A DNA stretch of 32,000 bases from Cryobacterium sp. SO2 (lineage in GTDB: Bacteria > Actinomycetota > Actinomycetes > Actinomycetales > Microbacteriaceae). Positions 919 to 30,533 of the stretch are shown here, piece after piece (the first letter of the stretch is position 1; each line of letters begins with the position of its first letter). Made by a program: the position numbers and the translations under genes. The DNA lies in contig NZ_CP117849.1 in the NCBI RefSeq assembly GCF_026151165.2, positions 547,258 to 579,257 of the forward strand, in the 5' to 3' direction. The notes under the pieces were generated by a model that ran no database searches, was not told the origin of the DNA, and saw only the letters and a list, made by a program, of their open reading frames with translations.

Positions 919-2892
919 ATGGGCACCTTCGCGATCGGCGACACCGACTTCCTCCTCGACGGGCAGCCGTTCCAGGTGCTGGCCGGCGCCATCCACTACT
1001 TCCGGGTGCACCCGGACCACTGGGCCGACCGCATCCACAAGGCGAAGCTGATGGGCCTGAACACCATCGAGACCTATGTCGCCTGGAACGCGCACTCGCC
1101 CGCCCGCGGCGACTTCGACACCACCGGCCAGCTCGACCTGGCCCGGTTCCTCGACCTCATCGCCGCCGAGGGCCTGTACGCCATCGTGCGGCCCGGCCCG
1201 TTCATCTGCGCCGAGTGGGACAACGGGGGACTGCCCGGCTGGCTGTTCACCGACCCCGCCGTGGGCGTGCGCCGCAACGAACCGCTCTACATGGCGGCCG
1301 TGGCCGAGTACTTCGACCAGCTGCTGCCGATCGTGGCGTCCCGGCAGATCGACCGGGGCGGCCCCGTCATCCTCGTGCAGATCGAGAACGAGTACGGCGC
1401 CTACGGCAATGACAAGAGCTACCTGCGTGCCCTCGTGGAGCTCAACCGGGCCGGCGGCATCACGGTGCCGCTCACCACCATCGACCAACCCACCGACCAG
1501 ATGCTCTCCGACGGCAGCCTGCCCGAGCTGCACAAGACCGGCTCGTTCGGCTCTCGCGCCACCGAGCGCCTGGCCACCCTGCGCCGTCACCAGCCGACCG
1601 GCCCGCTGATGTGCGCCGAGTTCTGGAACGGCTGGTTCGACCACTGGGGCGCGCACCACCACACCACCTCCGCGGACGAGAGCGCCCGCGAGCTGGACGA
1701 CCTGCTCGCCACCGGCGCATCCGTGTCGCTGTACATGTTCACCGGCGGCACCAACTTCGGCTTCACCAACGGCGCCAACGACAAGGGCGTCTACCAGCCC
1801 ACCGTCACCTCCTACGACTACGACGCGCCCCTCTCCGAGAGCGGCGAGATCACGGCCAAGTACCTCGCCTTCCGCCAGGTGCTGGCCCGGTACGCGCCGG
1901 TGCCCGCCGAACTGCCCGCGCCCGCCACGGATGCGCCGGCCTTCACGGTGGCACTCGACGAGTCAGTCTCGCTCTGGGACGCGCTGCCCGAGCTGACCGA
2001 CACCGTCGCGCCGGCGGCGGCGCTCACCAGCAGCCCAGGAGTGCCCGCCGCATCCGGCCTGCCCAGCATCGCCGCCGCATCCGGCCTGCCCAGCATGGAT
2101 GCCCTCGGCCAGTACACGGGGTTCGCCCTGTATCGCAACCGGCTCACGCCGGGTGCCCGGGTGTTGTCGTTCGGCGAGGTGCGCGACCGCGCCCAGGTCT
2201 TCGTCGACGGCACCGCGGTGGGTGTGCTGCACCGCGACCACCACGACCGCTCGATCAGCCTGCCGCCGGGGGAGCGCCTCGACGTGCTCGTCGAAGACCA
2301 GGGCCGGGTCAACTACGGCCCGCGCATCGGCGAAGACAAGGGCCTGATCGGCCCGGCCACCCTCGACGGGGTGCAGCTCGGCGGCTGGCAGGTGCTGCCG
2401 CTGGATGTCGACGCTTTCGTCGCATCCGACAGCGCACTCTTCGCCGCGCAGCCGACCCACCGGGGCGCGGGGTCGCACGCCGTGGACCTGGACCTCGACG
2501 TGGATCTCGACCTCGCCGTGAACCTCACCCCCACCCCCACGCTCACCGCGCGGGCCACGGGTCCGAGCTCCACGGATGCCGCGGCCACCCTCACCCTGGT
2601 CCCGCCCGTCGACTCCGGGTCGCTCAGCGGTCCGGCGTTCGCGCGCGGCCGGTTCGACGCCCAGCCCGGCGTCGACCTGTTCCTCAGCACCGCCGGCTGG
2701 GGCAAGGGCCAGGCCTGGATCAACGGCTTCAACCTCGGCCGGTTCTGGGACCGCGGCCCGCAGACCACCCTCTACGTGCCCGGCCCGGCCTTGCGTGCGG
2801 AGAACGAGCTGGTCATCCTGTGCCTGCACGGCACCGAGAGCACCCTCGCCCGCTTCGTCTCCCGCCCCGACCTCGGCCACACCGACTTCTAA
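919..2892 (+). CDS. beta-galactosidase, GH35 family (657 aa)
   Basis: ATG at 919. The N-terminal catalytic domain reads FLLDGQPFQVLAGAIHYFRVHPDHWADRIHKAKLMGLNTIETYVAWNAHSP...PGPFICAEWDNGGLPGWL...QIENEYG, which is typical of GH35. The track ORF 64..2892 is the same frame read through from upstream. Confidence 0.9.
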   Translation: MGTFAIGDTDFLLDGQPFQVLAGAIHYFRVHPDHWADRIHKAKLMGLNTIETYVAWNAHSPARGDFDTTGQLDLARFLDLIAAEGLYAIVRPGPFICAEWDNGGLPGWLFTDPAVGVRRNEPLYMAAVAEYFDQLLPIVASRQIDRGGPVILVQIENEYGAYGNDKSYLRALVELNRAGGITVPLTTIDQPTDQMLSDGSLPELHKTGSFGSRATERLATLRRHQPTGPLMCAEFWNGWFDHWGAHHHTTSADESARELDDLLATGASVSLYMFTGGTNFGFTNGANDKGVYQPTVTSYDYDAPLSESGEITAKYLAFRQVLARYAPVPAELPAPATDAPAFTVALDESVSLWDALPELTDTVAPAAALTSSPGVPAASGLPSIAAASGLPSMDALGQYTGFALYRNRLTPGARVLSFGEVRDRAQVFVDGTAVGVLHRDHHDRSISLPPGERLDVLVEDQGRVNYGPRIGEDKGLIGPATLDGVQLGGWQVLPLDVDAFVASDSALFAAQPTHRGAGSHAVDLDLDVDLDLAVNLTPTPTLTARATGPSSTDAAATLTLVPPVDSGSLSGPAFARGRFDAQPGVDLFLSTAGWGKGQAWINGFNLGRFWDRGPQTTLYVPGPALRAENELVILCLHGTESTLARFVSRPDLGHTDF

Positions 2893-2905
2893 CCCCTTCC
2901 CGCCC

Positions 2906-2975
2906 CACTGTTCCCCATGCGGACAATTGCGTCCGGTGCGCCGGGCGCAAAAGTCCGATTCGGGCACAGTTGCAA
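2906..2975. repeat. family A ~70-bp nested palindrome, copy 1
   Basis: CACTGTTCCCCATGCGGACAATTGCGTCCGGTGCGCCGGGCGCAAAAGTCCGATTCGGGCACAGTTGC. Aligns with copies at 4906, 8665 and 10487. Confidence 0.85.
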
Positions 2976-3002
2976 CGCCTGGTGCGCCTGGTGCGCCCGT
3001 TC

Positions 3003-3113
3003 CGCTGGTTGAGCTTGTCGAAGCCAGGTGACCCGGTCTCGCTGGTTGAGCTTGTCGAAACCAGGTGACCCAGTCTCGCTGGTTGAGCTTGTCGAAACCA
3101 GGTGACCCAGTCT
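3003..3113. repeat. family D tandem array, 3 x 37 bp (CGCTGGTTGAGCTTGTCGAAACCAGGTGACCCAGTCT)
   Basis: Units start at 3003, 3040 and 3077 with only 2-3 substitutions. Each unit holds a CTGGTT/AACCAG hairpin and a GGTGACC palindrome. Confidence 0.9.
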
Positions 3114-3198
3114 GCGGTCCGCGCCTCGTGTGTATCCGCGGTGCCCGCATCCGCGCGCCCTGATGCTCGCGACGCATCCCACGCCCCCTCACCCTGCC

Positions 3199-3268
3199 GA
3201 GTTGCCCCACTGCGGACGAGTTGCCCCGGCGCACCGGAGCAACTCGTCCGTAGTGGGGCAACTCGCGC
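3199..3268. repeat. family B ~70-bp nested palindrome, intergenic copy
   Basis: GAGTTGCCCCACTG[CGGACGAGTTGC cccggcgcaccgga GCAACTCGTCCG]TAGTGGGGCAACTC. It has a perfect 12-bp inner stem and a 13-bp outer stem. Confidence 0.9.
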
Positions 3269-3279
3269 GCCGGATGCCC

Positions 3280-4692
3280 TCAGCCGCGACCGCCCACAGG
3301 CGGGCGCCGGTCGGCCCAGGGCTGCACGCGCTCCAGCTGGGCGCACACCGCGATCACCAGCTCCTCCGAGTTCGCCGGCCCCACCACCTGGCCGCTGAGC
3401 GGCAGCCCGTCCACGCTGAACCCGGTCGGGATCGCCGCTGCCGGGTTGCCCAGCACGTTCCAGATCGACGTGAACGATGCCGTGGGCGTCGCCGCGGCCA
3501 TCGCTGCCCAGAAACCGCGCCCGTCGAGCTGGCCCACAGGCACGGCGGGAGTGGGGGTGGTGGGCATCAGCAGCAGGTCGATGCCGTCGAACAGGCTGGC
3601 CAGAAACCGCTCGCCGTCGGCGATGCCGCGCCGCTCGGCGGCCGCACTGAACGCCAGCAACGGCCGGGCGATCCGCACCATCGTGCGGGTGCGCTTCTCC
3701 AGCAGCCGCGGATGCTCCACCCGCGCAGCCTCATCGCTCACCCCGCCGAGAACCTGCAGCATGAACGGCAGGGCCAGCTTCGGGTACGCGGGGGTAACTT
3801 CCACGACCTCGTGGCCGAGGTCACGCAGCGCCCGAGCCGTCCGGTGCAGGGCCTCCGTGGTCTCGGCATCCGCGGCCGGGCCGCCGCCGGGGTTCTTCAC
3901 CGCGAGCCCGATGCGCAGCCGGGCCGGCGCGGTCGTGGCGGCGGCCGCCAACGATCCGGTCCACGGCTGCGCGGAGAACCGGTCGGCCGCGGTGCTGCCC
4001 GCGACGGCGTCGTAGATCAGGGCGCTGTCGGCCACGCTGCGGGTCAGCGGGCCGAGCACCCCGAGGGAGCGCCAGAGGTCGGCGTTGGGCGCGGCGCTGA
4101 TCCGGCCCCGCTGCGGCTTGAGGCCGAACAGCCCGCAGTAGCTCGACGGCAGCCGGATCGACCCGCCGCCGTCGCCGCCGATACCGGCCGGCACCATGCC
4201 GCTGGCCACCGCGGCCGCGGTGCCGCCGCTCGAGCCGGCGGGGGAGCGCAGCGGATTCCACGGATTCCGGGTGTACCCGTTGGCGCTGGTCTCGGTCCAC
4301 GGCCAGATCCCGAATTCGGGCATCCGGGTCTTGCCCACGATCACGGCGCCGGCCGCGCGCAGCCGGCGCACCAGCTCGCTGTCCGCCGCGGCGGACGACG
4401 TCACGGATGCGCCGCCGTACGCGGTCGGCAGTCCCGCCACGTCGTTCTCGTCCTTGATGGCGATCGGCACCCCGTGCAACGGCCCACGCAGCCGGCCCTC
4501 CGCCTGCTCCCGGTCCAGCTCGTCCGCCTCGGCGAGGGCCTCGGCGCCGCGCACCCACGCGAAGGCGTTGAGCACCGGGTCGAGCCGGCCGATGCGCTCC
4601 AGACTGTGCTGCACTACCTCCCGCGCCGTCACCTCCCCGGTCGCGATCAGATCCCGCAGTTCACCAACGCCCCGAAATTCCAGATCGACCAC
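3280..4692 (-). CDS. amidase (amidase-signature family, 470 aa)
   Basis: GTG start at 4692, preceded by AAGGGGGA. The Gly/Ser-rich amidase signature AGSSGGTAAAVASG...GGSIRLPSSYCGLFGLKP is present. Confidence 0.9.
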   Translation of the reverse strand: MVDLEFRGVGELRDLIATGEVTAREVVQHSLERIGRLDPVLNAFAWVRGAEALAEADELDREQAEGRLRGPLHGVPIAIKDENDVAGLPTAYGGASVTSSAAADSELVRRLRAAGAVIVGKTRMPEFGIWPWTETSANGYTRNPWNPLRSPAGSSGGTAAAVASGMVPAGIGGDGGGSIRLPSSYCGLFGLKPQRGRISAAPNADLWRSLGVLGPLTRSVADSALIYDAVAGSTAADRFSAQPWTGSLAAAATTAPARLRIGLAVKNPGGGPAADAETTEALHRTARALRDLGHEVVEVTPAYPKLALPFMLQVLGGVSDEAARVEHPRLLEKRTRTMVRIARPLLAFSAAAERRGIADGERFLASLFDGIDLLLMPTTPTPAVPVGQLDGRGFWAAMAAATPTASFTSIWNVLGNPAAAIPTGFSVDGLPLSGQVVGPANSEELVIAVCAQLERVQPWADRRPPVGGRG

Positions 4693-4905
4693 GACGTTCC
4701 CCCTTCAGGTGCGGATGCCCGCACGTGCGGATGCCCGCAAATCGCGGACACCACCGAACTCTGAGTTCATCCTGCCGTGCTGCCCCGCCGCTGCGGGCCT
4801 CCCACGGGTCCGGCATGTAAACGCTGGGCTCACCAGTGTTAAAGCCTTGTTTCGGGAGGGGGCCCGCACGCCGCCCCGGCGGTCGCGCCGGGCCCACTCC
4901 CGTGC

Positions 4906-4975
4906 CAACTGTTCCCCGTACGGACAATTGCGCCCGGTGTGCCGGGACCATTTGTCCGGAGCGGGCACAGTTGCG
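4906..4975. repeat. family A nested palindrome, copy 2
   Basis: CAACTGTTCCCCGTACGGACAATTGCGCCCGGTGTGCCGGGACCATTTGTCCGGAGCGGGCACAGTTGCG, upstream of dnaX. Confidence 0.85.
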
Positions 4976-5133
4976 TGGGGTCCCGCACCGCGCGGCCGTC
5001 GGCGCCCGCACCCGGCGGCCGTCGGGCACTGCACCGTCCGGCTCCGGCATCGGGATGCCCGCGCTCGCCGCGCATCCGCCGCCCTGTGCACGACCCACCC
5101 GGGGTGTCGGTGGCAACAAGTACCATTGACCTC

Positions 5134-7995
5134 GTGGTTACCGCCCTGTATCGCCGTTACCGGCCAGAGACTTTTGCCGAAATGATCGGTCAGTCACAGG
5201 TGACCGATCCGCTCATGACCGCCCTGCGCACCAACAGGGTCAATCATGCCTACCTCTTCAGCGGACCCCGCGGCTGTGGTAAGACCACCTCCGCGCGCAT
5301 CCTGGCCCGCTGCCTCAACTGTGCAGAGGGCCCCACCGACACCCCCTGCGGCGTCTGCCCCAGCTGCGTCGAGCTCTCCCGCGACGGCAGCGGCTCCCTC
5401 GACGTGGTCGAAATCGACGCGGCCAGCCACAACGGTGTCGACGACGCCCGCGACATCCGCGAACGCGCCATCTTCGCGCCGGCCCGCGACCGCTACAAGA
5501 TCTTCATCCTCGACGAGGCGCACATGGTCACCCCGCAGGGCTTCAACGCGCTGCTCAAGATCGTGGAAGAGCCGCCGGAACACGTGAAGTTCATCTTCGC
5601 CACGACCGAGCCCGAGAAGGTCATCGGCACCATCCGCTCGCGCACCCACCACTACCCGTTCCGGCTGGTGCCGCCCGCACCCATGCTCGACTACGTGCAG
5701 CAGCTCTGCGACAGCGAGCACATGAGCGTTGCCCCCGGCGTGCTGCCGCTCGTGGTGCGCGCCGGCGGCGGCTCGCCCCGCGACACCCTCTCGCTGCTCG
5801 ACCAGCTGATGGCCGGCTCCGAGACGGATGCCATCGAGTACGAACGCGCCGTGGCCCTGCTCGGCTACACCAACGCGGCCCTGCTCGACGACGCCATCGA
5901 CGCCATCGCCGCCCGCGACTCGTCCTCGGCGTTCGACGCCGTCGACCGGGTGATCCAGACCGGCCAGGACCCGCGCCGCTTCGTCGAAGACCTGCTCGAG
6001 CGCATGCGCGACCTCATCATCGTGGCCGCCACCAGCGCCGCCGGTGCCGCCGCGGTGCTGCGCGGCGTGCCGCAGGACGAACTCGACCGGATGGCCGTGC
6101 AGGCCGCCAAGTTCGGCCCGGCCGAGCTGAGCCGCACCGCCGACATCCTCAACGCCGCCCTCACCGAGATGACCGGCGCCACCTCGCCGCGCCTGCACCT
6201 CGAACTCATGATCGCCCGCGCGCTCATCCCCGCCACCGACGACACCACCCGCGGCGCGCTCGCCCGCGTCGAACGCCTCGAACGCCGCATCGGCGTCGAC
6301 GGCGGCCCCACGGATGCGCCGGCCCCGGCCGCGCCCGCCGCCTCGGCCCCGCGCACGCCCGCCGCCCCGCCCGCCGGAGCCCCGTCCGCGGCCCCAGCTT
6401 CGAGTGCCGCCGCGCCGGCCGCAACCTCCCCGGCCTCGTCGGCGCCCGCCCCGGCCGGCTCGGGCTGGGCCACTCGCGTACCCGGAGCCCCGGCCGCAGT
6501 CCCTATCGAAACTGCCGCCGCCGACCGAGAGGCCTCCGGCGCCGTTCCGGCCGGGGCCGCTGCGTCCGCTGGCGCATCCGCCGGCGCAGGTTCCACCCCA
6601 GCCGCGGGTTCCACCGCCGGTGCGGCTTCCGCCACCGGAACCCCTGCCGCGTCTGGCGCGTCAGCCACCGGGGCTGCCGGCGCCGGAGCATCCGCCGCCA
6701 GCGGCCCGGTCACGCCCGCCGCCAGCCCGGCCGAACCCGCCGCGCCGGCCGCAGCTCCCGCGCGCCCGGTGGGCCCGGTCACCCTGGCGCAGATCAAGGA
6801 TGCCTGGCCGCAGATCCTCGACGCCGTCAAGGAGGTCAAGCTCAGCGCCTGGCTCGTCGTGTACACCGCGCGCGTGCTCGACCTGCGCGGCGAAGACGTG
6901 CTCGTGCTGTCCTTCCCCAGCGAGCAGGACATGCAGGGCTTCAAGGCGCAGCAGGCCCCTGGCCAGGGTGTCAGCGAGTTCCTCCGCGGCGCCATCGTCA
7001 AGGTGCTCGGTCTGCGCGTGAAGTTCATCGCCCGCGCCGACTCCGAGGCCTTCCCCTCGAACACCGGGCACGCCCCGGGCTCCGCTCCCGCCGCCGACCT
7101 GCCCTCCTCCGGACCAGTTGCCCCGGTGCAGCAGGGCAACTCGTCCGCTCCGGGGCAACTCGCGGATGCGCCGTCCCCGACTCCCTCCCGCGCGGCGCCG
7201 ACGGATGCCTCCGCGTCAGCGGATGCGCCGTCACTGGGCAGCACCCCGCCGGCGTCAGGCGCCCCCACCGCCGTGCCGTCAGCCGGTTCGTCCGCCTTCG
7301 GCGAGTCGTCCAGCAGCGCCACCGCAAGCGCCGGCGCAGCCACCTCAAGCGCCGGCGCAGCCACCTCAAGCACCGCCACCGCCACGCTCGCACCGCCCGC
7401 CACCTCCACCGGCTGGGCAACGGTGGTGATTCCCGGATCCGCCGCCGCCCTGGCCGCAGCCGAGACGGCAGCGACCGAGCCGGCCAGCATCGCCTCCTCC
7501 GCCAACGCGTCGGTCGCGGGTTCCCCCAGCGCGGCAACGGCAAGCGCGCCTGCGGTCTCCGCACCCGTTACCGGCTCGCCGGTCGCAGACGTCGGCCAGG
7601 GCGGACGAGCCGCGGCGTCGCAGTCGGCCCCAGAGCCCGACTACGCCCCCGAGCCCGACTTCGAGCCGCCCTTCGACGAGGAGCCGCCGCCCTACGACGA
7701 CCTCCCGCCCGACCCGCAGTCCTTCTCCGGTCCGCCGGAGACCGGTCGCGATGCCCGCTCGGCCCCGCAGCAGGCGCCGCGCCAACAGCAGGCCCCCGGC
7801 CAGTCGGCACCACCGGCATCCGCCCCGACCGCGCCGAACGCATCCGCCCAGCGCGGCGGCGCCCCGGCCCGCCGCTCGCCCGCGTTCGCGGAAAAGCAGC
7901 GTTACGGCGAGGCCGTGGTGCGCGAGATCCTCGGCGCCACCTTCATCGAAGAGCAGCCGCACGACCCGATCTCGCGACAGAGGAACGACAACTAA
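5134..7995 (+). CDS. dnaX: DNA polymerase III subunit gamma/tau (about 953 aa, very long low-complexity C-terminal half)
   Basis: VVTALYRRYRPETFAEMIGQSQV, Walker A GPRGCGKTT, zinc module CLNCAEGPTDTPCGVCPSC, DEAHM. GTG 5134 is chosen by N-terminal homology; GTG 5110 is an alternative start. The track ORF start at 4939 is upstream read-through. Confidence 0.9.
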   Translation: MVTALYRRYRPETFAEMIGQSQVTDPLMTALRTNRVNHAYLFSGPRGCGKTTSARILARCLNCAEGPTDTPCGVCPSCVELSRDGSGSLDVVEIDAASHNGVDDARDIRERAIFAPARDRYKIFILDEAHMVTPQGFNALLKIVEEPPEHVKFIFATTEPEKVIGTIRSRTHHYPFRLVPPAPMLDYVQQLCDSEHMSVAPGVLPLVVRAGGGSPRDTLSLLDQLMAGSETDAIEYERAVALLGYTNAALLDDAIDAIAARDSSSAFDAVDRVIQTGQDPRRFVEDLLERMRDLIIVAATSAAGAAAVLRGVPQDELDRMAVQAAKFGPAELSRTADILNAALTEMTGATSPRLHLELMIARALIPATDDTTRGALARVERLERRIGVDGGPTDAPAPAAPAASAPRTPAAPPAGAPSAAPASSAAAPAATSPASSAPAPAGSGWATRVPGAPAAVPIETAAADREASGAVPAGAAASAGASAGAGSTPAAGSTAGAASATGTPAASGASATGAAGAGASAASGPVTPAASPAEPAAPAAAPARPVGPVTLAQIKDAWPQILDAVKEVKLSAWLVVYTARVLDLRGEDVLVLSFPSEQDMQGFKAQQAPGQGVSEFLRGAIVKVLGLRVKFIARADSEAFPSNTGHAPGSAPAADLPSSGPVAPVQQGNSSAPGQLADAPSPTPSRAAPTDASASADAPSLGSTPPASGAPTAVPSAGSSAFGESSSSATASAGAATSSAGAATSSTATATLAPPATSTGWATVVIPGSAAALAAAETAATEPASIASSANASVAGSPSAATASAPAVSAPVTGSPVADVGQGGRAAASQSAPEPDYAPEPDFEPPFDEEPPPYDDLPPDPQSFSGPPETGRDARSAPQQAPRQQQAPGQSAPPASAPTAPNASAQRGGAPARRSPAFAEKQRYGEAVVREILGATFIEEQPHDPISRQRNDN
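7096..7169 (+). repeat. family B nested palindrome embedded in-frame in dnaX
   Basis: GACCTGCCCTCCTCCGGACCAGTTGCCCCGGTGCAGCAGGGCAACTCGTCCGCTCCGGGGCAACTCGCGGATGC. Translated as ADLPSSGPVAPVQQGNSSAPGQLADA. Confidence 0.8.
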
Positions 7996-8595
7996 ATGTA
8001 CGAAGGAATCGTTCAGGAACTCATCGACGAGCTCGGCCGCCTGCCCGGCATCGGCCCGAAGTCGGCGCAGCGCATCGCGTTCCACATCCTGCAGACCAAG
8101 AACTTCGACGTGACCCACCTGGCGAACGTGCTGCTCGAGGTGCGCGACAAGGTGAAGTTCTGCGAGATCTGCGGCAACGTCTCCGAGCAGGACACCTGCA
8201 TGATCTGCCGCGACCCGCGCCGCAACCCCACCTCGATCTGCGTGGTCGAAGAGGCCAAGGACGTCGTCGCGATCGAGCGCACCCGCGAGTTCAAGGGCCT
8301 GTACCACGTGCTCGGCGGGGCGATCAGCCCCATCGACGGTATCGGACCCGACGATCTGCGCATCCGCCAGCTGATGACGCGCCTCGCCGACAACACCGTG
8401 CAGGAGGTGATCATCGCCACCGACCCCAACCTCGAGGGCGAGGCCACCGCCACCTACCTCTCCCGGCTGCTCACCACCCTCGAGATCAAGGTCACCCGCC
8501 TGGCCTCCGGCCTGCCCGTCGGCGGCGACCTCGAGTACGCCGACGAGGTCACCCTCGGCCGCGCCTTCGAGGGCCGCCGCACCGTCACCTCCTAG
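7996..8595 (+). CDS. recR: recombination protein RecR (199 aa)
   Basis: The ATG directly abuts the dnaX TAA. Contains the HhH motif [13 protein letters not shown], the Cys4 finger [16 protein letters not shown] and a Toprim region. Confidence 0.97.
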
Positions 8596-8664
8596 CCGCG
8601 CCCGCCCCGGCCCGGGCGCCCTGCGCCCGTCCCCGTCGCGCCCGCCGCGGCCCGGGTGCCGCGA

Positions 8665-8734
8665 CAACTGTTCCCCATGCGGACATCTGCGCCCGGTGTG
8701 CCGGCACCATTTGTCCGCTTCGGCAACACTTGTG
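8665..8734. repeat. family A nested palindrome, copy 3
   Basis: CAACTGTTCCCCATGCGGACATCTGCGCCCGGTGTGCCGGCACCATTTGTCCGCTTCGGCAACACTTGTG. Confidence 0.85.
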
Positions 8735-8805
8735 CCCGGATGCCCGGATGCCCGGATGCCCGGATGCCCGGATGCCCGGATGCCCGGATGCCCGGATGCC
8801 CGGAC
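8734..8805. repeat. octanucleotide microsatellite (GCCCGGAT) x 8 plus one variant unit
   Basis: Perfect units start at 8734, 8742, 8750, 8758, 8766, 8774, 8782 and 8790. The variant GCCCGGAC is at 8798. Confidence 0.95.
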
Positions 8806-8879
8806 GGGCACCTCGTGCGCCGCACGTCTGCCCGCATATAGCGCTCCACCGTGACACGAACCGGGCTTCTCCCCTCTAT

Positions 8880-9010
8880 GACTGGCCTATTTTGGCTAGT
8901 GCGGAGGCGCTCGCGACTAGCAAGAATGGGCCAGTCATCGAACCCGCGGAGATGACTGGCCCGGAATTGCTAGTGCGGAGGCGCTCACGACTAGCAAGAA
9001 TGGGCCAGTC
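8880..9010. repeat. family C: pair of ~57-bp hairpins (8880-8936, 8954-9010)
   Basis: The arms GACTGGCC(C/T)ATTTT(C/G)GCTAGT ... ACTAGCAAGAATGGGCCAGTC are conserved around a ~15-nt loop. The same arms recur at 25770-25910. Confidence 0.85.
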
Positions 9011-9116
9011 AGCGTCGGCGCGCGCACACTCCGTCACATGAACGACCGAGAATACGAACGCATTTAGGATGGGAACGCGGGATGTCTCCGCGTACCCGGA
9101 AGCCAGGAGTGCCCAC

Positions 9117-10412: not shown

Positions 10413-10486
10413 GCCGCGAACCACGCCCGGCCGCGCCCGCCCGGCAGCTGCTCCCCGAGCATCCGCCCCGAGGGTCCCGCGGCGAC

Positions 10487-10556
10487 CAACTGTTCCCGAA
10501 GCGGACATTTACGCCCGGTACGCCGGGACCATTTGTCCGCATCGGCAACAGTTGCG
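10487..10556. repeat. family A nested palindrome, copy 4
   Basis: CAACTGTTCCCGAAGCGGACATTTACGCCCGGTACGCCGGGACCATTTGTCCGCATCGGCAACAGTTGCG. Confidence 0.85.
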
Positions 10557-16047: not shown

Positions 16048-17220
16048 ATGCTGTTAGACGGACCGACCCTGCAAATGCTGAGCGGCCTGATCGTCATCCT
16101 GTGCGGGGTGTCATTCATCTTCAACACGGCGCTCAACCGCAACGACCCGCCCGGCCGGCTGTGGAGCCTGGCGTTCGTGGCGGGCATGATGGTGGCCGTC
16201 GGCTACGGCGTCTACATCGTCAGCGCGGATGCGTGGTGGTCGATCACCGTCGCCAACACCAGCTTGGTCATCGCCGTCGGCGCGCTCTGGAGCGGCTCCC
16301 GGGTGTACAACCTCCGCAGCTCCGGCTTCCTCGTAGTTGGCAGCCTCTCGGCGGTCGTGGGTGTCATCACCCTCGCGGCCGGCCCGGACGGCGGCGAATG
16401 GGCCGGAGCCGGCCCCCTCTGGCTGGTGGTGGCCGCGATGGGCGCCCTCGGCGGCTACGAGGCCCTCCGCGGCCGGTTGCGCCGCAACGTGAACGGACGC
16501 ATCCTCTCGATCGTGCTCTTCGTCGTGGCCGTGTTCTACGCGGCCCGGGCGGTCGAGTTCTTCGTCGCCGGCGTCGACAGCCCCACCTTCCTCGCCTACT
16601 TCGACTCCGGCACTACCTCCATCCTCAACATGGCGCTCATCGTCACGGCGTGCATCGCCGTGTCGATCCTGCGTGCAGAGGGTGTCGGCAGCAGCGCCGT
16701 CGGCGACATCACGGTGGGCATCCACTCCGCAGCCGGCGTGCTCTCGGCCACGTCGTTCCGGCAGGCCGCCGCCGACCACCTGGAGCGGGGCAAACGCTCC
16801 CAGCTCGGCCTGGCCCTGATCGGCGCCGACATCGACAACCTGCCCGAGATCAACACGGCGTTCGGCCGGTCCGCCGGCGACGAGGCCATCGCCCGCTTCG
16901 CCGACACGCTGCGCAGCAGTGCGCCGCTGCTCGCGCAGATCGGGCACCCGGCCGCCGGCCGGTTCTTCGTGCTCGCCGCGGTCGGCTCCGCCTCCGAGGC
17001 TCGCACGATCACCGAGCGCATCCAGAACGCCCTCGTGGACGGCCCGCTGGGGGAGTCGTACCAGATCCGCCTCACGGCGAGTTTCGGCATCGCGGACACC
17101 TTCGACCACGGCTACGACCTCGCCGAGCTCACCGAGGCGACGACCCTGGCGATCGGCATCGTCAAGCAGCGCGGCGGCAACGACATCGCCGTCGTCACCG
17201 AGGCCGCCAACCCGGTCTAG
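16048..17220 (+). CDS. membrane protein with a degenerate GGDEF domain (390 aa)
   Basis: ATG follows AGGGGGA. The first ~210 aa are polytopic, followed by a GGDEF fold (LALIGADIDNLPEINTAFGRSAGDEAI...). The signature reads AAGRFF (about 16951-16968) and no RxxD I-site is present. Confidence 0.8.
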   Translation: MLLDGPTLQMLSGLIVILCGVSFIFNTALNRNDPPGRLWSLAFVAGMMVAVGYGVYIVSADAWWSITVANTSLVIAVGALWSGSRVYNLRSSGFLVVGSLSAVVGVITLAAGPDGGEWAGAGPLWLVVAAMGALGGYEALRGRLRRNVNGRILSIVLFVVAVFYAARAVEFFVAGVDSPTFLAYFDSGTTSILNMALIVTACIAVSILRAEGVGSSAVGDITVGIHSAAGVLSATSFRQAAADHLERGKRSQLGLALIGADIDNLPEINTAFGRSAGDEAIARFADTLRSSAPLLAQIGHPAAGRFFVLAAVGSASEARTITERIQNALVDGPLGESYQIRLTASFGIADTFDHGYDLAELTEATTLAIGIVKQRGGNDIAVVTEAANPV

Positions 17221-17233
17221 CGATGCGCCCGCC

Positions 17234-17304
17234 CGCTGGTTGAGCGTGTCGAAACCCGGTGACCCGCCCGCTGGTTGAGCCTGTCGAAACCCGGTGAGCC
17301 GTCA
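17234..17304. repeat. family D tandem array, 2 x 35 bp (CGCTGGTTGAGC(G/C)TGTCGAAACCCGGTGA)
   Basis: Units start at 17234 and 17269, between convergent genes. Confidence 0.85.
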
Positions 17305-17315
17305 CGGCCCACGTT

Positions 17316-17392
17316 CGTCTCCGCGGCCTGTCCTTATCCCGGCGGCACGAGTTACAACGCGTGCCGCGGGGCCCAACGAGTGCCGCGAGGGC
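17316..17392. repeat. family E structured repeat, copy 1
   Basis: GTCTCCGCGGCC...CGGCGGCACGAGTTACAACGCGTGCCGCGGGGCCCAACGAGTGCCGCGAGGG aligns with 27331-27405. It contains a GGCACGnGTT/AACGCGTGCC hairpin. Confidence 0.75.
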
Positions 17393-19913: not shown

Positions 19914-19938
19914 CCGCCCCCGCCTCCCGCTGGGTTTC

Positions 19939-20335
19939 CGCTGGTCGAGCTTGTCGAGACCCCGTGACGTGCGTATGTGTCGCGAGTTCGGCTCGCCGGG
20001 TCTCGACGGGCTCGACCAGCGGAGGGGTCACCTCCCGCGCAGATGGCCGCGACGTGCTTGCGGTTCGCCCCCACGTCGCTGGTCGAGCTTGCCGAGACCC
20101 CGTGACGTGCGTGTGTGTCGCGAGTTCGGCTCGCCGGGTCTCGACGGGCTCGACCAGCGGAGGGGTCACCTCCCGCGCAGATCGCCGCGACGTGCCTGCG
20201 GTTCGAGCCCATCTCGCTGGTCGAGCTTGTCGAGACCCCGTGACGTGCGCGCGTGTCGCGAGTTCGGCTCACCGGGTCTCGACAGGCTCGACCAGCGGAG
20301 GGGTCACCTCCCGCGCAGAAGGCCGCGCTCAACGG
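19939..20335. repeat. composite family D tandem array, 3 x 138 bp
   Basis: Units start at 19939, 20077 and 20215 and are nearly identical. Each holds 23-nt inverted arms CGCTGGTCGAGCTTGTCGAGACC / GGTCTCGACGGGCTCGACCAGCG and a GGAGG..CCTCC hairpin. Confidence 0.92.
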
Positions 20336-20339
20336 CAAA

Positions 20340-20380
20340 CATCCGCCCCTCGTGATCGAAACGAAGGGCGGATGCTTTCA
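20340..20380. terminator. hairpin terminator candidate between convergent operons
   Basis: CATCCGCCC (20340-20348) pairs with GGGCGGATG (20366-20374). It is followed by CTTTC on the plus strand and TTTGCC on the minus strand. Confidence 0.45.
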
Positions 20381-22646: not shown

Positions 22647-24125
22647 GTGAATTTACAACCGAAGGTCGATGTCGCCCTGATCGGTGGGGGCATCATGAGC
22701 GCCACTCTCGCCACCCTGCTCAGCGAATTGCAGCCAGACTGGAACATCCAGGTCTACGAGCGCCTGGGCGAGCTCGCCCAGGAGAGTTCGAACCCGTGGA
22801 ACAACGCCGGAACCGGCCATGCCGCGCTTTGCGAGCTCAACTACATGCCGCAGGCGCCCGACGGCTCCGTCACGCCGGAGAAGGCCGTGGCCATCAACGA
22901 GCAGTTCCAGATCAGCCGCCAGCTCTGGGCGCACCTGGTGGAGACCGGCGTGTTGCCCGAGCCGGAGAAGTTCATCAACTCCACCCCGCACATGACCTTC
23001 GTGCACGGCGCCTCCAACGTGGACTACCTGCGCAAGCGCCGTGACGCTCTCGCCGACCAGCCGCTGTTCGCCGGCCTCGAATACAGCGAGGACCCGGCCG
23101 TGATCGGTCAGTGGACGCCGCTGCTCACCAAGAAGCGCGCCGCCAAGCAGAAGATCGCCGCCACCCGCATCGCCTCCGGCACCGACGTGGACTTCGGCGC
23201 CGTCACCCGCTACCTCTTCGACTCGCTCAAGAAGCGTGGCGTGGATGTGCACGTCAACCAGCAGGTCACCTCCCTCAAGCAGCTCGAGGACGGCTCCTGG
23301 CGGCTCAAGCTGCTCAGCCTGGTGGGCCGGTACACCAACACGGTCGAGGCCAAGTTCGTCTTCGTCGGCGCCGGCGGCGGAGCCCTCGCGCTGCTGCAGA
23401 AGAGCGGCATCCCCGAGATCAAGGGCTTCGGCGGTTTCCCGATCAGCGGCCAGTTCCTGCGCACCTCCAACCCGGCGATCGTGGCCCAGCACCAGGCCAA
23501 GGTCTACGGCAAGGCCGCCGTGGGGGCCCCGCCGATGTCGGTGCCGCACCTCGACACCCGGGTAGTGGATGGCGAGACTTCACTTTTGTTCGGCCCGTTC
23601 GCCGGCTTCAGCCCCAAGTTCCTCAAGCGCAGCACCTGGTTCGACCTGCCGTTCTCGGTGCGCCCGCACAACCTGGTGCCGATGCTCGCCGTGGCGAAGA
23701 ACAACTTCGGCCTGATGAAGTACCTGATCGGCGAGGTCTTCGCCTCGCGAAAGGCCAAGCTCGACGCGCTGCGCGAGTTCATGCCCACCGCCCAGGCCAA
23801 GGACTGGGAGCTGATCACCGCCGGGCAGCGCGTGCAGGTGATGAAGAAGGACGCCAAGGCCGGCGGCGTGCTGCAGTTCGGCACCGAGGTCATCACCTCC
23901 GCCGACGGCAGCATCGCGGGCTTGCTCGGGGCGTCACCCGGAGCATCCACCGCGGCGCCGATCATGGTCGACCTGTTGCAGCGCTGTTTCCCGGGGGAGT
24001 ACTCCCGTTGGGAGCCGCGCCTGCGCGAGATGATCCCCAGCCTGGGCACCAAGCTCAGCGACGACCCCGCCGCTGCGGCCGCCTCCCTGGCCGCCACCGC
24101 AGCGACTCTGCACCTCACGGCCTAG
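22647..24125 (+). CDS. mqo: malate:quinone oxidoreductase (492 aa)
   Basis: FAD fold DVALIGGGIMSATLATLL, the block NAGTGHAALCELNY, and full-length similarity to Mqo as I know it. Confidence 0.93.
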   Translation: MNLQPKVDVALIGGGIMSATLATLLSELQPDWNIQVYERLGELAQESSNPWNNAGTGHAALCELNYMPQAPDGSVTPEKAVAINEQFQISRQLWAHLVETGVLPEPEKFINSTPHMTFVHGASNVDYLRKRRDALADQPLFAGLEYSEDPAVIGQWTPLLTKKRAAKQKIAATRIASGTDVDFGAVTRYLFDSLKKRGVDVHVNQQVTSLKQLEDGSWRLKLLSLVGRYTNTVEAKFVFVGAGGGALALLQKSGIPEIKGFGGFPISGQFLRTSNPAIVAQHQAKVYGKAAVGAPPMSVPHLDTRVVDGETSLLFGPFAGFSPKFLKRSTWFDLPFSVRPHNLVPMLAVAKNNFGLMKYLIGEVFASRKAKLDALREFMPTAQAKDWELITAGQRVQVMKKDAKAGGVLQFGTEVITSADGSIAGLLGASPGASTAAPIMVDLLQRCFPGEYSRWEPRLREMIPSLGTKLSDDPAAAAASLAATAATLHLTA

Positions 24126-24133
24126 GTCGCATC

Positions 24134-24188
24134 CGCTGGTCGGGCCTGTCGAGACCTCGCGACAGGATCTCGACAAGCTCGATCAGCG
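24134..24188. repeat. family D single palindromic copy
   Basis: CGCTGGTCGGGCCTGTCGAGA ... TCTCGACAAGCTCGATCAGCG, immediately after the mqo stop. Confidence 0.8.
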
Positions 24189-25765: not shown

Positions 25766-25769
25766 CCGA

Positions 25770-25910
25770 GACTGGCCCATTTTCGCTAGTTCTCACCCCT
25801 CCCGCACTAGCGATTCTGGGCCAGTCATCGTTGCGCCCCGCGCGCTACCCCGGGACTGGCCCATTTTCGCTAGTTGAGTGGGCCCGGGCACTAGCAAATC
25901 CGGGCCACTC
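25770..25910. repeat. family C: second pair of ~57-bp hairpins (25770-25826, 25854-25910)
   Basis: The arms match 8880-9010 (GACTGGCCCATTTTCGCTAGT ... ACTAGC..A..TGGGCCAGTC), but the loop sequences differ. Confidence 0.85.
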
Positions 25911-25950
25911 CAGCCGTTCCTGCCCACCGTGCTCGTCCCTACTCGCAGTA

Positions 25951-27330: not shown

Positions 27331-27405
27331 GTCTCGCGGCCCGTGATAAGACCCGCGGCACGTGTTCCAACGCGTGCCGCCGCACCAAACACGTGCAGCG
27401 ACGGA
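27331..27405. repeat. family E structured repeat, copy 2
   Basis: GTCTCGCGGCCC...CGCGGCACGTGTTCCAACGCGTGCCGCCGCACCAAACACGTGCAGCGACGG. Confidence 0.75.
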
Positions 27406-27579: not shown

Positions 27580-28986
27580 ATGTCACTTGGGTTACCCGGC
27601 CACCTGGTGCAGGCCACGCTCAGCCGCGCCCTGGCCCGCGCCAGCCACTGGTTCGGCCTTGTCTGCCTGGCCGGCGCGCTGGCGTCGGTGCTGGCGCTGA
27701 GCATGTTCCCCGTCACCGACCGGCTGCAGCTCACCGTCGCGGCGATCCTCGGCATGGGCGCCCTGCTCGCGCTCCTCGCCCGCTGGCGCACGGTGCCGCT
27801 CACCATCGCCTACCTCGTGCTCGGCGCCGCCTGCACCTACCTGTTCACCGGCGCGGTGCTGGGCATGCCCGGCGTGTTCTCGTCCTCGGACATGTTCCTC
27901 ATCTCGCTGCCCAAGATGGCCCTGATCATGGTCGGCGGCGCCGGTTCCGGCGCGCTCGTGGGCGTGCTGTGGAGCACCCTCGGGTTCCTCCTCGCCGAGA
28001 TCGCCGCCACCCTGGCCGTGGCGCAGACCGCCGTGCCCGACCGGCCCGACGTGTTCACCATCGTCACCTACCTCGTGCTCGTGGGCGTGATGCTGCTCGA
28101 CGGCCTCACCCGCCGCACCGGCCGCGCCGCCCAGCCGGCCATCCACAAGGCGGTGCAAGACGACGAGTCCCGCACCCTGCGCCACGACTTCGACGTGCGG
28201 GCGATCGCGCTGATGCACGACACCACCCTCAACCAGCTTGTTTCCGTGGCCCGCGCCAAGCCCGGCCCGCTCAGCCGCGGCCTCGAGGCCGGCATCCGCG
28301 AAACCCTGCACACCCTCGCCGACCGCGACTGGCTCACCCACGTCGACGAACGCACCGGCGCCGCGCCCGCCGGCAGCGACGGTTGGTTGGGCAGCGCCGT
28401 GTTCCGCGCCATCGACCGCAGCCGAGACCGCGGCTTGGTCATCGACATCACCGGCGACAAGGATGCGCTCGCCCGCCTTGCCCCCGAAAGCGACCGGGAA
28501 CTCGGCCTCGCCGTTCAACAGTGCCTGGTGAACGTCCTCCAGCACTCCGGCATCGCTTCCGCCGAGGTGGTCATCGACGCCGACGACGAGAACGTGTCGG
28601 TGATGGTGCTCGACGCCGGCACCGGCTTCATGGAATCCGAGACCGGCAGCGACCGGCTCGGCCTGCGCCAGTCGGTGCGCAAGCGCATCGAGCGCCTCGG
28701 CGGCTCCGTGCAGATCTGGTCGCGCCCCGGCGCCGGCACCTCGGTGCTGCTCACCCTGCCCGCCCCGGCGCCCGCCCCCGCGGTCTCCGCCGAGTTGCCC
28801 ATTTCCGGACCAGTTGCCCCGGTACAGCAGGGCAACTCGTCCGCGGCGGGGCAACTCGCGGATGCCCTCTCCACCGCCGATGCCCCCACGCTCCGGACCC
28901 CAGCGGGCCCCGACACACCTACGACCCCCGGGACCTCGGCCCCGGACGCAGAGCCCGCGACCCCCACTGGCCCGGTGACCCCGTGA
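27580..28986 (+). CDS. membrane sensor histidine kinase, HisKA_3/NarX-like (468 aa)
   Basis: ATG 27580 follows GGCGGAGAGGG. About 170 aa of TM helices, the H-box-like ALMHDTTLNQL, and the ATPase part CLVNVLQHS...LDAGTGF...GLRQSVRKRIERLGG...GAGTSV. The C-terminal tail carries a family B repeat. Confidence 0.75.
   Translation: MSLGLPGHLVQATLSRALARASHWFGLVCLAGALASVLALSMFPVTDRLQLTVAAILGMGALLALLARWRTVPLTIAYLVLGAACTYLFTGAVLGMPGVFSSSDMFLISLPKMALIMVGGAGSGALVGVLWSTLGFLLAEIAATLAVAQTAVPDRPDVFTIVTYLVLVGVMLLDGLTRRTGRAAQPAIHKAVQDDESRTLRHDFDVRAIALMHDTTLNQLVSVARAKPGPLSRGLEAGIRETLHTLADRDWLTHVDERTGAAPAGSDGWLGSAVFRAIDRSRDRGLVIDITGDKDALARLAPESDRELGLAVQQCLVNVLQHSGIASAEVVIDADDENVSVMVLDAGTGFMESETGSDRLGLRQSVRKRIERLGGSVQIWSRPGAGTSVLLTLPAPAPAPAVSAELPISGPVAPVQQGNSSAAGQLADALSTADAPTLRTPAGPDTPTTPGTSAPDAEPATPTGPVTP
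28792..28865 (+). repeat. family B nested palindrome embedded in-frame in the kinase tail
   Basis: GAGTTGCCCATTTCCGGACCAGTTGCCCCGGTACAGCAGGGCAACTCGTCCGCGGCGGGGCAACTCGCGGATGC. Translated as AELPISGPVAPVQQGNSSAAGQLADA. Confidence 0.85.
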
Positions 28987-30533
28987 CCGCCCGCCGCGCC
29001 ACCCAGCAGCGCCTCGACCCGCTGGGCACCCTCGCCGCCTGGCCGCTGGCGCCGGGCCTCGCCGCCGTGGTGCTCTGCTACTCCGTGATCGCCACCGTGC
29101 TGCAGTCCGACCAGGTGCAGAACCCCCTGCTGGCCACCCTCGCCGTGCTCGCCATGGCCGCCGCCGCCGGCACCCTGGTGATCGCCACCCAGCCGGCGCA
29201 CTCCCCGTTCGGCCGCCAGGCGCACATCGTGATGGTGACCCTGGCCGTGCTCGGTTACCTCTTCGAGGCGCTCAGCCGCTGGGGCAGCAACGAACTCGTG
29301 CAAGACGACTTCGGCCCCATCAGCATCGGCCTGCTCCTGCTGGCCCTGGCCCCCTACCGGCCCTGGCGCGAGATCGCCCTCTCCGGCGCGATCGCCAGCG
29401 TCATCGCGATCGCCATCACCCTGCCGCAAGCCGGCACCTTCCGCATCGACGTGCCCGTGGCGGTCTACGCCATCGTGTCGGTCGTGCAGATCCTCGCGCC
29501 CGCCGCCGCCGGCGCCGCCTACTCCCGCCGGGTCGTCACGTCCATCCTCGCCTGGCAGACGGATGCGCGCCGCGCCATCGTCGCCCGCACCGAGGAGGCC
29601 CGCGGCCAGCTGGCCCGGGCCGTGGTGGAGCAGCAGGTCACCGCGCTCAAGTCCGGGGTGATCCCGTTCCTCACCGACGTGCTCGAGCGCGGCACCGTCA
29701 CCGCCCTCGACATCGCCCAGGCCGGCCAGCTGGCCGCCGAGGTGCGCCGCACCCTCGTGGCCGAGATCGACCGCACCTGGCTGGACTCCGTCGTCACCCG
29801 CGAACGAGCCGCCCTCGCCGAACGCGGCACTCCCGGCCTGCTCGTCGTGGCTGACCCCGAGCACCGCGCCACCGTGTTCGGGGCCGAACAACGCGCCGCC
29901 ACCGCGGCCCTGATCGGCGCCCTCTGCGCCGCCCCCGGTTTCGACCCGCACAGCCTGGTGGTGCAGATCACCGGCTCGCCCCAGCCGCGCACGCCCGGCG
30001 CCCGCTCGCGGCCGGCCCCTTCCGCCGACGTGCCCACCTCCGCACGAGTTGCCCCGGCGCAGCGGAGCAACTCGTCCGCACCGGGGCACCTCGCGGCACC
30101 GGCCCCCAGCCCCGGCGGCCGCCCGGCACCGGCCCCGTCCGCCCACCTGCCCACGTCCGCACGAGTTGCCCCGCCGCAGCGGAGCAACTCGTCCGCACCG
30201 GGGCACCTCGCGGATGCGCACGCCCCCGCACTCGGCCAGACGCCGCTGGCCATCCTCACCGGCCCGCCCGCCCCGGCCCAGTTCGACACCATCACCCTGC
30301 AGGCCGCGCTCGACGTGCCGCCGCGCAAGGTGCGGGCGCTGCTGCGCCCCTACCTGGGCGTCATCCGGGTGGTCTTCGGCAACGTGCGCGTCACCGTGCG
30401 GCGGCCCTCGCTCACCATCGAGTTCGACGCCGTGCGCGAGAACACCTCCAGCGCCGCCGCGCCCACGGCCCTCGCCACCCCGGCCACCCCCATCGGTGTG
30501 CGCGCGAACAAAGCTCCGCGCCAAGTACGCTGA
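28983..30533 (+). CDS. membrane protein of unknown function, translationally coupled to the kinase (516 aa)
   Basis: GTG 28983 overlaps the kinase TGA (GTGA). About 190 aa of TM helices, then a helical and mixed region that I cannot assign to a family. The track ORF start at 27969 is off-gene read-through. Confidence 0.6.
   Translation: MTARRATQQRLDPLGTLAAWPLAPGLAAVVLCYSVIATVLQSDQVQNPLLATLAVLAMAAAAGTLVIATQPAHSPFGRQAHIVMVTLAVLGYLFEALSRWGSNELVQDDFGPISIGLLLLALAPYRPWREIALSGAIASVIAIAITLPQAGTFRIDVPVAVYAIVSVVQILAPAAAGAAYSRRVVTSILAWQTDARRAIVARTEEARGQLARAVVEQQVTALKSGVIPFLTDVLERGTVTALDIAQAGQLAAEVRRTLVAEIDRTWLDSVVTRERAALAERGTPGLLVVADPEHRATVFGAEQRAATAALIGALCAAPGFDPHSLVVQITGSPQPRTPGARSRPAPSADVPTSARVAPAQRSNSSAPGHLAAPAPSPGGRPAPAPSAHLPTSARVAPPQRSNSSAPGHLADAHAPALGQTPLAILTGPPAPAQFDTITLQAALDVPPRKVRALLRPYLGVIRVVFGNVRVTVRRPSLTIEFDAVRENTSSAAAPTALATPATPIGVRANKAPRQVR
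30027..30218 (+). repeat. two family B copies (30027-30096, 30144-30218), 117 bp apart, in-frame within the membrane protein gene
   Basis: The core CGCACGAGTTGCCCCG(G/C)CGCAGCGGAGCAACTCGTCCGCACCGGGGCACCTCGCGG occurs twice. Translated as SARVAP(A/P)QRSNSSAPGHLA. Confidence 0.85.

Follow-up and report, generated by a model that had tools for sequence, protein, structure and literature searches.

Why do the C-terminal tail of a membrane histidine-kinase-like protein and the clamp-loader subunit DnaX, two unrelated proteins, contain nearly the same peptide? The question is raised by a stretch of 32,000 nucleotides (nt) from Cryobacterium sp. SO2 (contig NZ_CP117849.1, positions 547,258 to 579,257; hereafter the window), in which a kinase gene at 27580–28986 on the plus strand carries a palindromic element at 28792–28857. 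A sequence-only reading of the window had attributed the likeness to an insertion at the DNA level rather than to a shared protein domain, and the comparisons reported here agree with it. The element is a dispersed, lineage-restricted palindromic repeat, the presence of which varies among orthologous sites. With considerable confidence, we regard the kinase copy as one member of a non-autonomous family of interspersed palindromes, specific to one clade of cold-adapted Cryobacterium and similar in kind to the repetitive extragenic palindromic (REP) and REPIN sequences.

The core of the kinase copy is a 66-nt segment, GAG...CTC, on the plus strand, which comprises 22 codons of the C-terminal tail and reads GAGTTGCCC-ATTTCCGGAC-CAGTTGCCCCGG-TACAGCA-GGGCAACTCGTCCG-CGGCG-GGGCAACTC. 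Inner arms CGGACCAGTTGCCCCG and CAGGGCAACTCGTCCG (28806–28821 and 28828–28843, separated by a loop at 28822–28827) are nested within outer arms GAGTTGCCC and GGGCAACTC (28791–28801 and 28848–28858), which confirms the full palindrome with two pairs of arms that had been described. Its limits had been given as 28792–28865; the location stands, while the limits are now refined to the core at 28792–28857, within a unit that spans approximately 28788–28864 when the partly conserved termini (CGCC...GCGGATG) are counted. RNA folding predicts a nested hairpin of −46.4 kcal/mol (z = −6.2). In the kinase frame the copy is translated as AELPISGPVAPVQQGNSSAAGQLADA, and the peptide of the dnaX copy, ADLPSSGPVAPVQQGNSSAPGQLADA, is identical to it at 23 of 26 positions, the same count as in the sequence-only reading. 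The element corresponds to kinase residues 405–426, C-terminal to the HATPase_c domain (residues 306–396), and approximately 118–125 nt separate its end from the next start, a GTG at 28983 in overlap with the stop codon of the kinase. Both the placement past the ATPase domain and the distance of about 120 nt to the next start had thus been correctly read.

The family to which this copy belongs has a consensus of approximately 70 nt, CGAGTTGCCCC-N4-CGGA-CGAGTTGCCCC-G-N6-C-GGGGCAACTCG-TCCG-N4-GGGGCAACTCG, in which the 11-nt motif CGAGTTGCCCC occurs four times, as two direct and two inverted copies. When 47 copies were aligned with their flanks, the boundaries were sharp and the flanking sequences unrelated. 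The consensus termini are weakly conserved (CGCC/GAGTTG...CAACTC/GCGG(AT), with slashes at the element boundaries), and 45 of 46 copies have a GAG...CTC core of 66 nt (22 codons). An nhmmer profile returned five copies in the window, at 3195–3267, 7092–7165, 28788–28861, 30023–30096 and 30140–30213; four of these are within genes (dnaX, the kinase tail and, twice, the gene downstream of the kinase) and one is intergenic. The pattern GAGTTGCCC-N40-70-GGGCAACTC matched the window twice, against 0.00 matches expected from 100 shuffles. The intergenic copy (core 3199–3264, no strand assigned) is located between convergent genes for a GH35 beta-galactosidase (end at 2892) and an amidase; the stop codon of the latter, at 3280–3282 on the minus strand, is 13 nt from the copy as bounded by nhmmer. 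This copy forms a near-perfect 31-bp hairpin (−68.2 kcal/mol, z = −12.5) in a window with a G+C content of 70%, and stabilities over the family range from −48 to −71 kcal/mol. The longest direct repeats flanking the copies were distributed as in a shuffled-flank control, giving no sign of a target-site duplication. Searching the window against Rfam 15 gave no match at gathering thresholds, and relaxed thresholds gave only generic hairpin (miRNA precursor) matches far below the cut-offs. No match to the element was found in plasmid and viral contig collections. A profile of the translated element returned nothing at E ≤ 10 from a database of 5.8 billion proteins, in which a 28-residue match is too short to reach significance.

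Where such copies usually reside was addressed with a metagenome scan for the inner core, which yielded 39 copies on 35 contigs, all from one sample series (Ga02477xx–Ga02478xx). Sites were called coding or intergenic by the codon-position G+C rule GC3 > GC1 > GC2; the score GC3 minus GC2 was rejected as a classifier, as antisense frames also score well. By this rule 36 of the 39 copies are intergenic and three (approximately 8%) lie in genes. Overall, 32 of 37 intergenic copies are found 2–26 nt from the stop codon of a gene that reads toward the copy, and 13 of those 32 sit between two convergent stops. One orthologous intergenic site, past a gene whose product ends in ...LPGRL, contains an element in each of the metagenome contigs L017 (7924–7997), L019 (6220–6290) and L041 (1312–1385); the motifs are kept and the spacers have diverged, which offers a direct view of copies evolving in place.

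For the kinase itself, named genomes supplied 13 orthologous loci (L001–L013). Four of them (L001–L004: the metagenome-assembled genome RYN_54, C. adonitolivorans, C. lactosi and Cryobacterium sp. N22) carry the element at the same tail site, and it is absent from the other nine (L005–L013), namely C. inferilacus, C. arcticum, C. zongtaii, W22_MBD10_FK3 and five more distant relatives. The kinases of the four named non-carriers have 84–90% protein identity, and they possess neither the DNA repeat nor the peptide; orthologues devoid of the repeat that nevertheless encode the peptide, which would have spoken for a protein domain, are not seen. Among protein homologues, the peptide occurs in P0001–P0004 and P0009, and in none of P0005, P0006 and P0010–P0014. 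A conserved ...GTSVLLTLP motif is followed by the tail, which forms a hypervariable Pro/Ala/Thr stretch, 13–75 residues long and rich in insertions and deletions (indels). In an AlphaFold2 model of the kinase, computed with 60 homologues and with a mean predicted local distance difference test score (pLDDT) of 77.5, the final strand comprises residues 386–394, and residues 395–468 lack secondary structure at pLDDT values of 41–54. The tail is thus modelled as disordered, and the element accounts for approximately 24 of its 74 residues in this strain. All 13 orthologues, whether they carry the element or not, retain the kinase stop codon and the overlapping downstream start (CCGTGAC). It had been asked whether the insertion created the stop codon or the tail; because tail and stop/start are present in orthologues without the element, it created neither.

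Insertion at the DNA level is supported by the intergenic copies as well, both that at 3199–3264 and those at 36 metagenome sites, and by the unrelated nature of the hosts, which include a histidine-kinase-like ATPase, DnaX, an unknown membrane protein, ArsA and an ABC ATPase. Conservation, moreover, tracks the DNA palindrome and not the codons. For the five element-bearing kinase orthologues, the ratio of nonsynonymous to synonymous divergence (dN/dS) is 0.77 over 28 element codons, compared with 0.19 over 382 codons of the kinase core. Synonymous divergence (dS) is similar in the element (0.22) and the core (0.29), and the copies therefore diverged together with their host gene. For the other two hosts in the window, the element was found in none of ten orthologues of the downstream gene, and an element-like peptide in none of 120 DnaX homologues.

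The copies within genes share a setting and a reading frame. In dnaX (open reading frame (ORF) 4939–7995, probable start near 5134), the copy at 7096–7161 is in frame on the plus strand; it directly follows the DnaX_C domain and opens a long Ala/Ser/Thr/Pro linker of low complexity. The two copies in the gene downstream of the kinase (30027–30092 and 30144–30209, both in frame on the plus strand) belong to units 1 and 2 of a 117-nt tandem duplication (29977–30093 and 30094–30210) and lie in a linker that is hypervariable and joins two conserved regions. A metagenomic arsA gene (L029, 34–1789), for an arsenical-pump ATPase, holds two in-frame copies, one in a loop of the first half of the protein and one in the linker between the halves, and a third copy 9 nt past its stop codon brings the number to three within 1.3 kb; the product matches TIGR04291 with 676 bits (cut-off 650), and the match is split at the first element copy. 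One further copy lies in a metagenomic gene for an ABC-transporter ATPase. With the tandem pair counted once, these amount to six independent events in five unrelated proteins: kinase, dnaX, the downstream gene, ArsA twice and the ABC ATPase. All six use one frame, which gives the peptide (E/D)LPxxG(R/P)VAPxx(R/Q)GNSSAxGQL (p = (1/3)^5 = 0.004), and since the unit is a palindrome, nearly the same peptide is obtained from either strand or orientation. Stop codons were rejected as the cause of this bias, as each of the six frames contains a stop in 3–6 of 46 copies. A possible cause is amino-acid composition: with Gly, Ala, Ser and Pro abundant, the used frame encodes 8.8% Arg and 1.7% Cys, compared with 14–21% Arg and approximately 5% Cys in the others.

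In genes, then, the element persists in one frame, in disordered segments and under relaxed constraint, and we infer that in-gene insertions pass through selection at the level of the host, which acts on frame, on length (the 22-codon core) and on structural context. A bolder view is that the element itself has adapted to survival in genes, as an actinobacterial counterpart of the Rickettsia palindromic elements (RPEs), with selection at the level of the element behind the one-frame usage. We consider this possible but rather unlikely. If it were true, either orientation would have one frame that reads a benign, disorder-compatible peptide, (E/D)LPxxGRVAPxxRGNSSAxGQL, from a core of exactly 22 codons, and the element would repeatedly build or extend flexible linkers in essential proteins such as DnaX, ArsA, ABC ATPases and sensor kinases.

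How the kinase tail came to hold its copy can be followed on a neighbour-joining tree built from 2110 gap-free nucleotide columns, which span the kinase gene and the first part of its downstream neighbour. Lineages with and without the element are intermixed on this tree: the window and RYN_54 together are sister to C. inferilacus (84% bootstrap), C. lactosi pairs with W22_MBD10_FK3 (86%), and sp. N22 with C. zongtaii (94%). Taken by itself, the interleaving would suit a tail that is an insertion hot spot, with the five carrier lineages having gained their copies independently. The same holds for the window kinase copy being as close to the window dnaX copy (88% identity) as to the orthologous kinase copies (78–87%), and different REPs have been described at about the same recB site in two Xanthomonas species (Di Nocera et al., PMC3733652). 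However, all five copies have a common orientation, frame and immediate flanks (TCCGCC/GAG...CTC/GCGGATG), the element dS is close to that of the host gene, and the tail is otherwise so rich in indels that losses are easy. In addition, two element-free sisters retain apparent remnants. In C. inferilacus the 3′ terminus of the element, CGCGGATGCC, is fused directly to the upstream tail in what appears to be a deletion scar, and C. zongtaii has a degenerate left arm, CCGCCGAAACAGCCCCCGCCTCGACCA (compared with CCGCCG-AGTTGCCCCCGTCCGGACCA), without the inner hairpin and the right arm. Because of the gene tree, the common orientation, frame and flanks and the two apparent scars, we favour one ancestral gain followed by at least four deletions, and judge repeated gains in a hot spot to be improbable.

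Gene conversion between the dnaX and kinase copies of the window was also considered, and the identities quoted above give no clear signal for or against it. These two copies (7096–7161 and 28792–28857) share the substitutions CGAGTT to CCAGTT and CCGGGG to CAGCAGGG, which remove both arginines of the consensus peptide and weaken the inner stem, and which are also found in the RYN_54 kinase copy. One in-gene copy could have served as template for the other, or parallel selection could have acted on both.

The pattern of conservation along the unit bears on a different proposal, in which the four phased CGAGTTGCCCC motifs, approximately 20 nt apart, form an array for a DNA-binding protein (a nucleoid-associated protein, a regulator or a mobilising enzyme) and are conserved by binding. 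Columns of the motifs are nearly invariant (mean entropy 0.22 bits), whereas the N4 and N6 spacers are variable (1.29 bits). The outer motifs are kept in 44–46 of 46 copies at most positions, and their conservation is unbiased because they were absent from the search pattern. Base-pair covariation is absent: over the full 32-bp helix every measure of covariation was at or below shuffled controls, with the spacers mostly unpaired, and the RNAalifold covariation term was approximately zero. The lack of covariation would be in keeping with a binding array. On the other side, no candidate protein has been identified, motif changes are tolerated in the in-gene copies, and recent spread from a few master copies would look alike. 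We therefore hold such an array to be an improbable explanation, of about the same standing as a hot spot in the kinase tail.

Invariant motifs and drifting spacers would likewise be seen if the element were a functional cis-element, either a terminator or an exonuclease-blocking 3′ stabiliser of mRNA at gene ends, or an attenuator or ribosome-pausing site in the kinase operon that tunes the ratio of the two coupled proteins. Roles of this kind have been proposed in the REP literature (PMC3733652), and they would fit the location of 32 of 37 intergenic copies 2–26 nt past stop codons, the very high stability of the hairpins and the fold of the kinase mRNA in a 261-nt context, in which the hairpin remains the dominant local structure. 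Yet purifying selection against insertions in promoters would equally yield a stop-adjacent placement, and compensatory covariation is lacking. The copies do not have the form of an intrinsic (Rho-independent) terminator: the G+C-rich hairpin is present, but no U/T tract or T run follows it in the flanks of the 47 aligned copies. The kinase copy speaks against such a role too, having been lost in at least four lineages and having a stem that is degraded relative to the intergenic copies; it is also translated, so that ribosomes would unwind the hairpin. The sequence-only reading had suggested that the hairpin might affect the downstream start or its coupling, of which there is no sign: in the 261-nt fold the start, approximately 120 nt away, does not pair with the element. 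A cis-acting function thus seems quite improbable to us. Least probable by far is that the peptide itself has a function, as a protein module or a short linear motif, and was acquired by descent or recruitment with the DNA palindrome incidental, for while all six events use one frame and the peptide is recognisable across unrelated proteins, 36 of 39 metagenome copies are intergenic, the best palindromes are the intergenic ones, close orthologues manage without the peptide, dN/dS is 0.77, and the peptide region has pLDDT values below 50, no secondary structure and no Pfam or NCBIfam family over it.

We thus return to the interspersed palindrome as the preferred reading of the kinase copy, and propose the following course of events. 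The usual site of the element is the short space just 3′ of stop codons, often between convergent genes, and occasionally a copy lands within a gene. Survival there would require that the 66-nt core keeps the frame, that the frame gives the linker-like peptide (E/D)LPxxG(R/P)VAPxx(R/Q)GNSSAxGQL and that the host segment, a linker or tail, is disordered and was hypervariable beforehand. The kinase tail was probably entered a single time, in the ancestor shared by the C. arcticum / C. zongtaii / C. lactosi / C. adonitolivorans group, after which the copy would have been inherited vertically in five sampled lineages and wholly or partly deleted in at least four. It would now be a near-neutral translated passenger with a decaying hairpin. 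The family might spread through a single-stranded hairpin intermediate on which an HUH/tyrosine-type transposase or a similar enzyme acts. This would fit the missing target-site duplications and the REP-like placement, and we advance it with low confidence.

Several observations weigh against this picture. No transposase or mobilising gene was identified, in an analysis that did not cover the complete genome, and no pair of filled and empty sites is clean enough to set the exact inserted length. Both apparent scars are situated in low-complexity, GC-rich sequence, in which short matches come about readily, and they call for caution. The frame bias concerns six events only, and a target-site preference could account for it. 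Metagenome copies were found with an exact inner-stem pattern, and conservation of the inner stem is biased accordingly. The higher mean folding energy of in-gene than of intergenic copies (−48.8 vs −58.8 kcal/mol) and their more frequent motif mismatches (3.2 vs 2.1, one-sided p = 0.04) come from a comparison that is biased by this inner-stem ascertainment and in which four of the 11 in-gene copies are orthologues of the kinase copy. For dnaX, the nearest homologues retrieved are just ~67–72% identical in the conserved part.

Among known systems, the element has its closest parallels in two groups, RPEs and REPs. RPEs are palindromic, occur both between genes and in frame in many unrelated genes, and add a conserved peptide that is absent from orthologues, at sites that do not disturb the fold. 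The in-frame insertion of our element into unrelated ORFs, with an added peptide that has no counterpart in orthologues, is a feature of the same type. RPEs, however, are approximately 100–150 bp long, AT-rich and confined to Rickettsia, which are obligate intracellular alpha-proteobacteria, and about half of the copies lie in genes (Ogata et al. 2000 via PMC10969869, PMC3733652). The Cryobacterium element has approximately 70 nt and 70% G+C, resides in a free-living actinobacterium and has ~8% (3 of 39) of its metagenome copies in genes. It does not belong to an RPE family, being set apart by length, G+C content and host, and a relationship in sequence is not to be expected.

REP and REPIN sequences (Bertels & Rainey 2011, PMC3116915; PMC3733652) are likewise short palindromes near ORF 3′ ends, between convergent or co-directional genes, without target-site duplications and with the capacity to form long hairpins. 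In Proteobacteria, REPs lie within ~20 bp of ORF 3′ ends, and those between convergent ORFs are mostly within 20 bp of both ends (Di Nocera et al. 2013, PMC3733652); our element is similarly a dispersed short stem-loop, mostly extragenic and near ORF 3′ ends. Intragenic REP dimers encode 20–30 amino acids, often in genes for DNA synthesis or repair (PMC3733652), a pattern into which the dnaX copy fits. Differences are found in the details. REPs have a conserved, unpaired GTAG or CGTC tag at one end of the unit, whereas the element has no GTAG, and CGTC occurs only in the inner stem, paired with GACG. A REPIN consists of two inverted REPs, each of which forms a small hairpin, whereas the halves of the element are direct repeats of CGAGTTGCCCC and only the whole unit folds. 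Its stems have 10 and 16 bp, compared with 8–9 bp in REPs, and a RAYT (Y1 HUH transposase) gene flanked by the repeats, as is characteristic of REP/REPIN systems, is not known for the element, although the complete genome was not covered. Prokaryotic MITEs (miniature transposable elements with inverted repeats) such as Correia, ERIC and Chunjie resemble the element in being small and non-autonomous, with inverted termini, stable transcript hairpins and some in-frame fusions (PMC10969869). They usually have a target-site duplication, exceed 100 bp, are AT-rich and derive from an identifiable insertion sequence (PMC10969869). The element, in contrast, lacks a target-site duplication, has approximately 70 nt, is GC-rich and has no known parent insertion sequence, and its termini are inverted because the whole unit is a palindrome; it is not a typical MITE. 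The element is an undescribed family of a known kind of element, REP/REPIN-like in general and RPE-like in genes. In the literature searched, we found no report of the motif, of Cryobacterium or Microbacteriaceae repeats of this kind, or of REPIN or RAYT in Actinobacteria, which are not mentioned in the REP/REPIN surveys (PMC3733652, PMC3116915).

The host of the kinase copy encodes a membrane histidine-kinase-like protein of 468 residues. Its HATPase_c match scores 31.6 bits against a Pfam cut-off of 26.4, no HisKA family was detected with Pfam, and the NCBIfam matches to NarX/UhpB/LiaS/MacS kinases cover the ATPase domain only and fall below their cut-offs. Homologues are named ‘sensor histidine kinase’ or ‘ATP-binding protein’ in their source records, and the closest relatives are all from Cryobacterium (Microbacteriaceae). 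The downstream gene (28983–30533, plus strand) starts with a GTG that overlaps the kinase stop codon (GTGA) and encodes a protein of 516 residues that matches no Pfam or NCBIfam family. The gene is conserved across Cryobacterium and translationally coupled to the kinase. Since its product is not a recognisable response regulator, the pair does not form a standard two-component system.

Other short palindromic repeat families, which are not related to the element, occur in nearly all intergenic regions of the window (2864–3113, 4865–4973, 8624–9014, 10446–10554, 17218–17389, 19923–20352, 24118–24170, 25768–25914 and 27333–27382), and the genome appears to be heavily colonised by several of them. 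A CGCTGGTTGAGCTTGTCGAAACC-type unit is present in three overlapping copies with a spacing of 37 nt at 2987–3113, a 109-nt family and a GACTGGCCC...GGGCCAGTC family have four copies each, and one arm of a 50-nt inverted pair lies just upstream of the kinase start. At 19939–20352, three tandem 138-nt units, the second and third with 94% and 81% identity to the first, contain a CGCTGGTCGAGCTTGTCGAGACC-type palindrome. A perfect tandem array of the octamer TGCCCGGA, with approximately ten units, occupies the intergenic segment 8725–8812 past a gene that ends at 8595 and could be a site of slippage or phase variation. With regard to dnaX, many public genes from Cryobacterium and Leifsonia (P0128, P0130, P0136, P0170) are annotated as ‘partial’ at contig ends, which suggests that the long low-complexity linker, together with any repeats, breaks short-read assemblies.

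The best-known cases of selfish palindromes inserted in frame into genes come from Rickettsia and some proteobacterial REPs; the process is seen here in a free-living, high-G+C actinobacterium, and the papers searched contained no report of it for Actinobacteria. The comparative evidence is unusually clean, with filled and emptied orthologous sites in named species, apparent scars, a single frame and disordered linkers that include one in the clamp-loader subunit DnaX. We infer that the kinase copy is a near-neutral passenger. Such repeats inflate and diversify the tails of annotated proteins and can suggest false homology between unrelated ones, and they are a probable contributor to breaks between contigs, given that a large number of the public dnaX genes from Cryobacterium are partial. 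The family could serve as a marker for strain typing and as a tractable system in which to follow the origin of protein linkers from mobile DNA.

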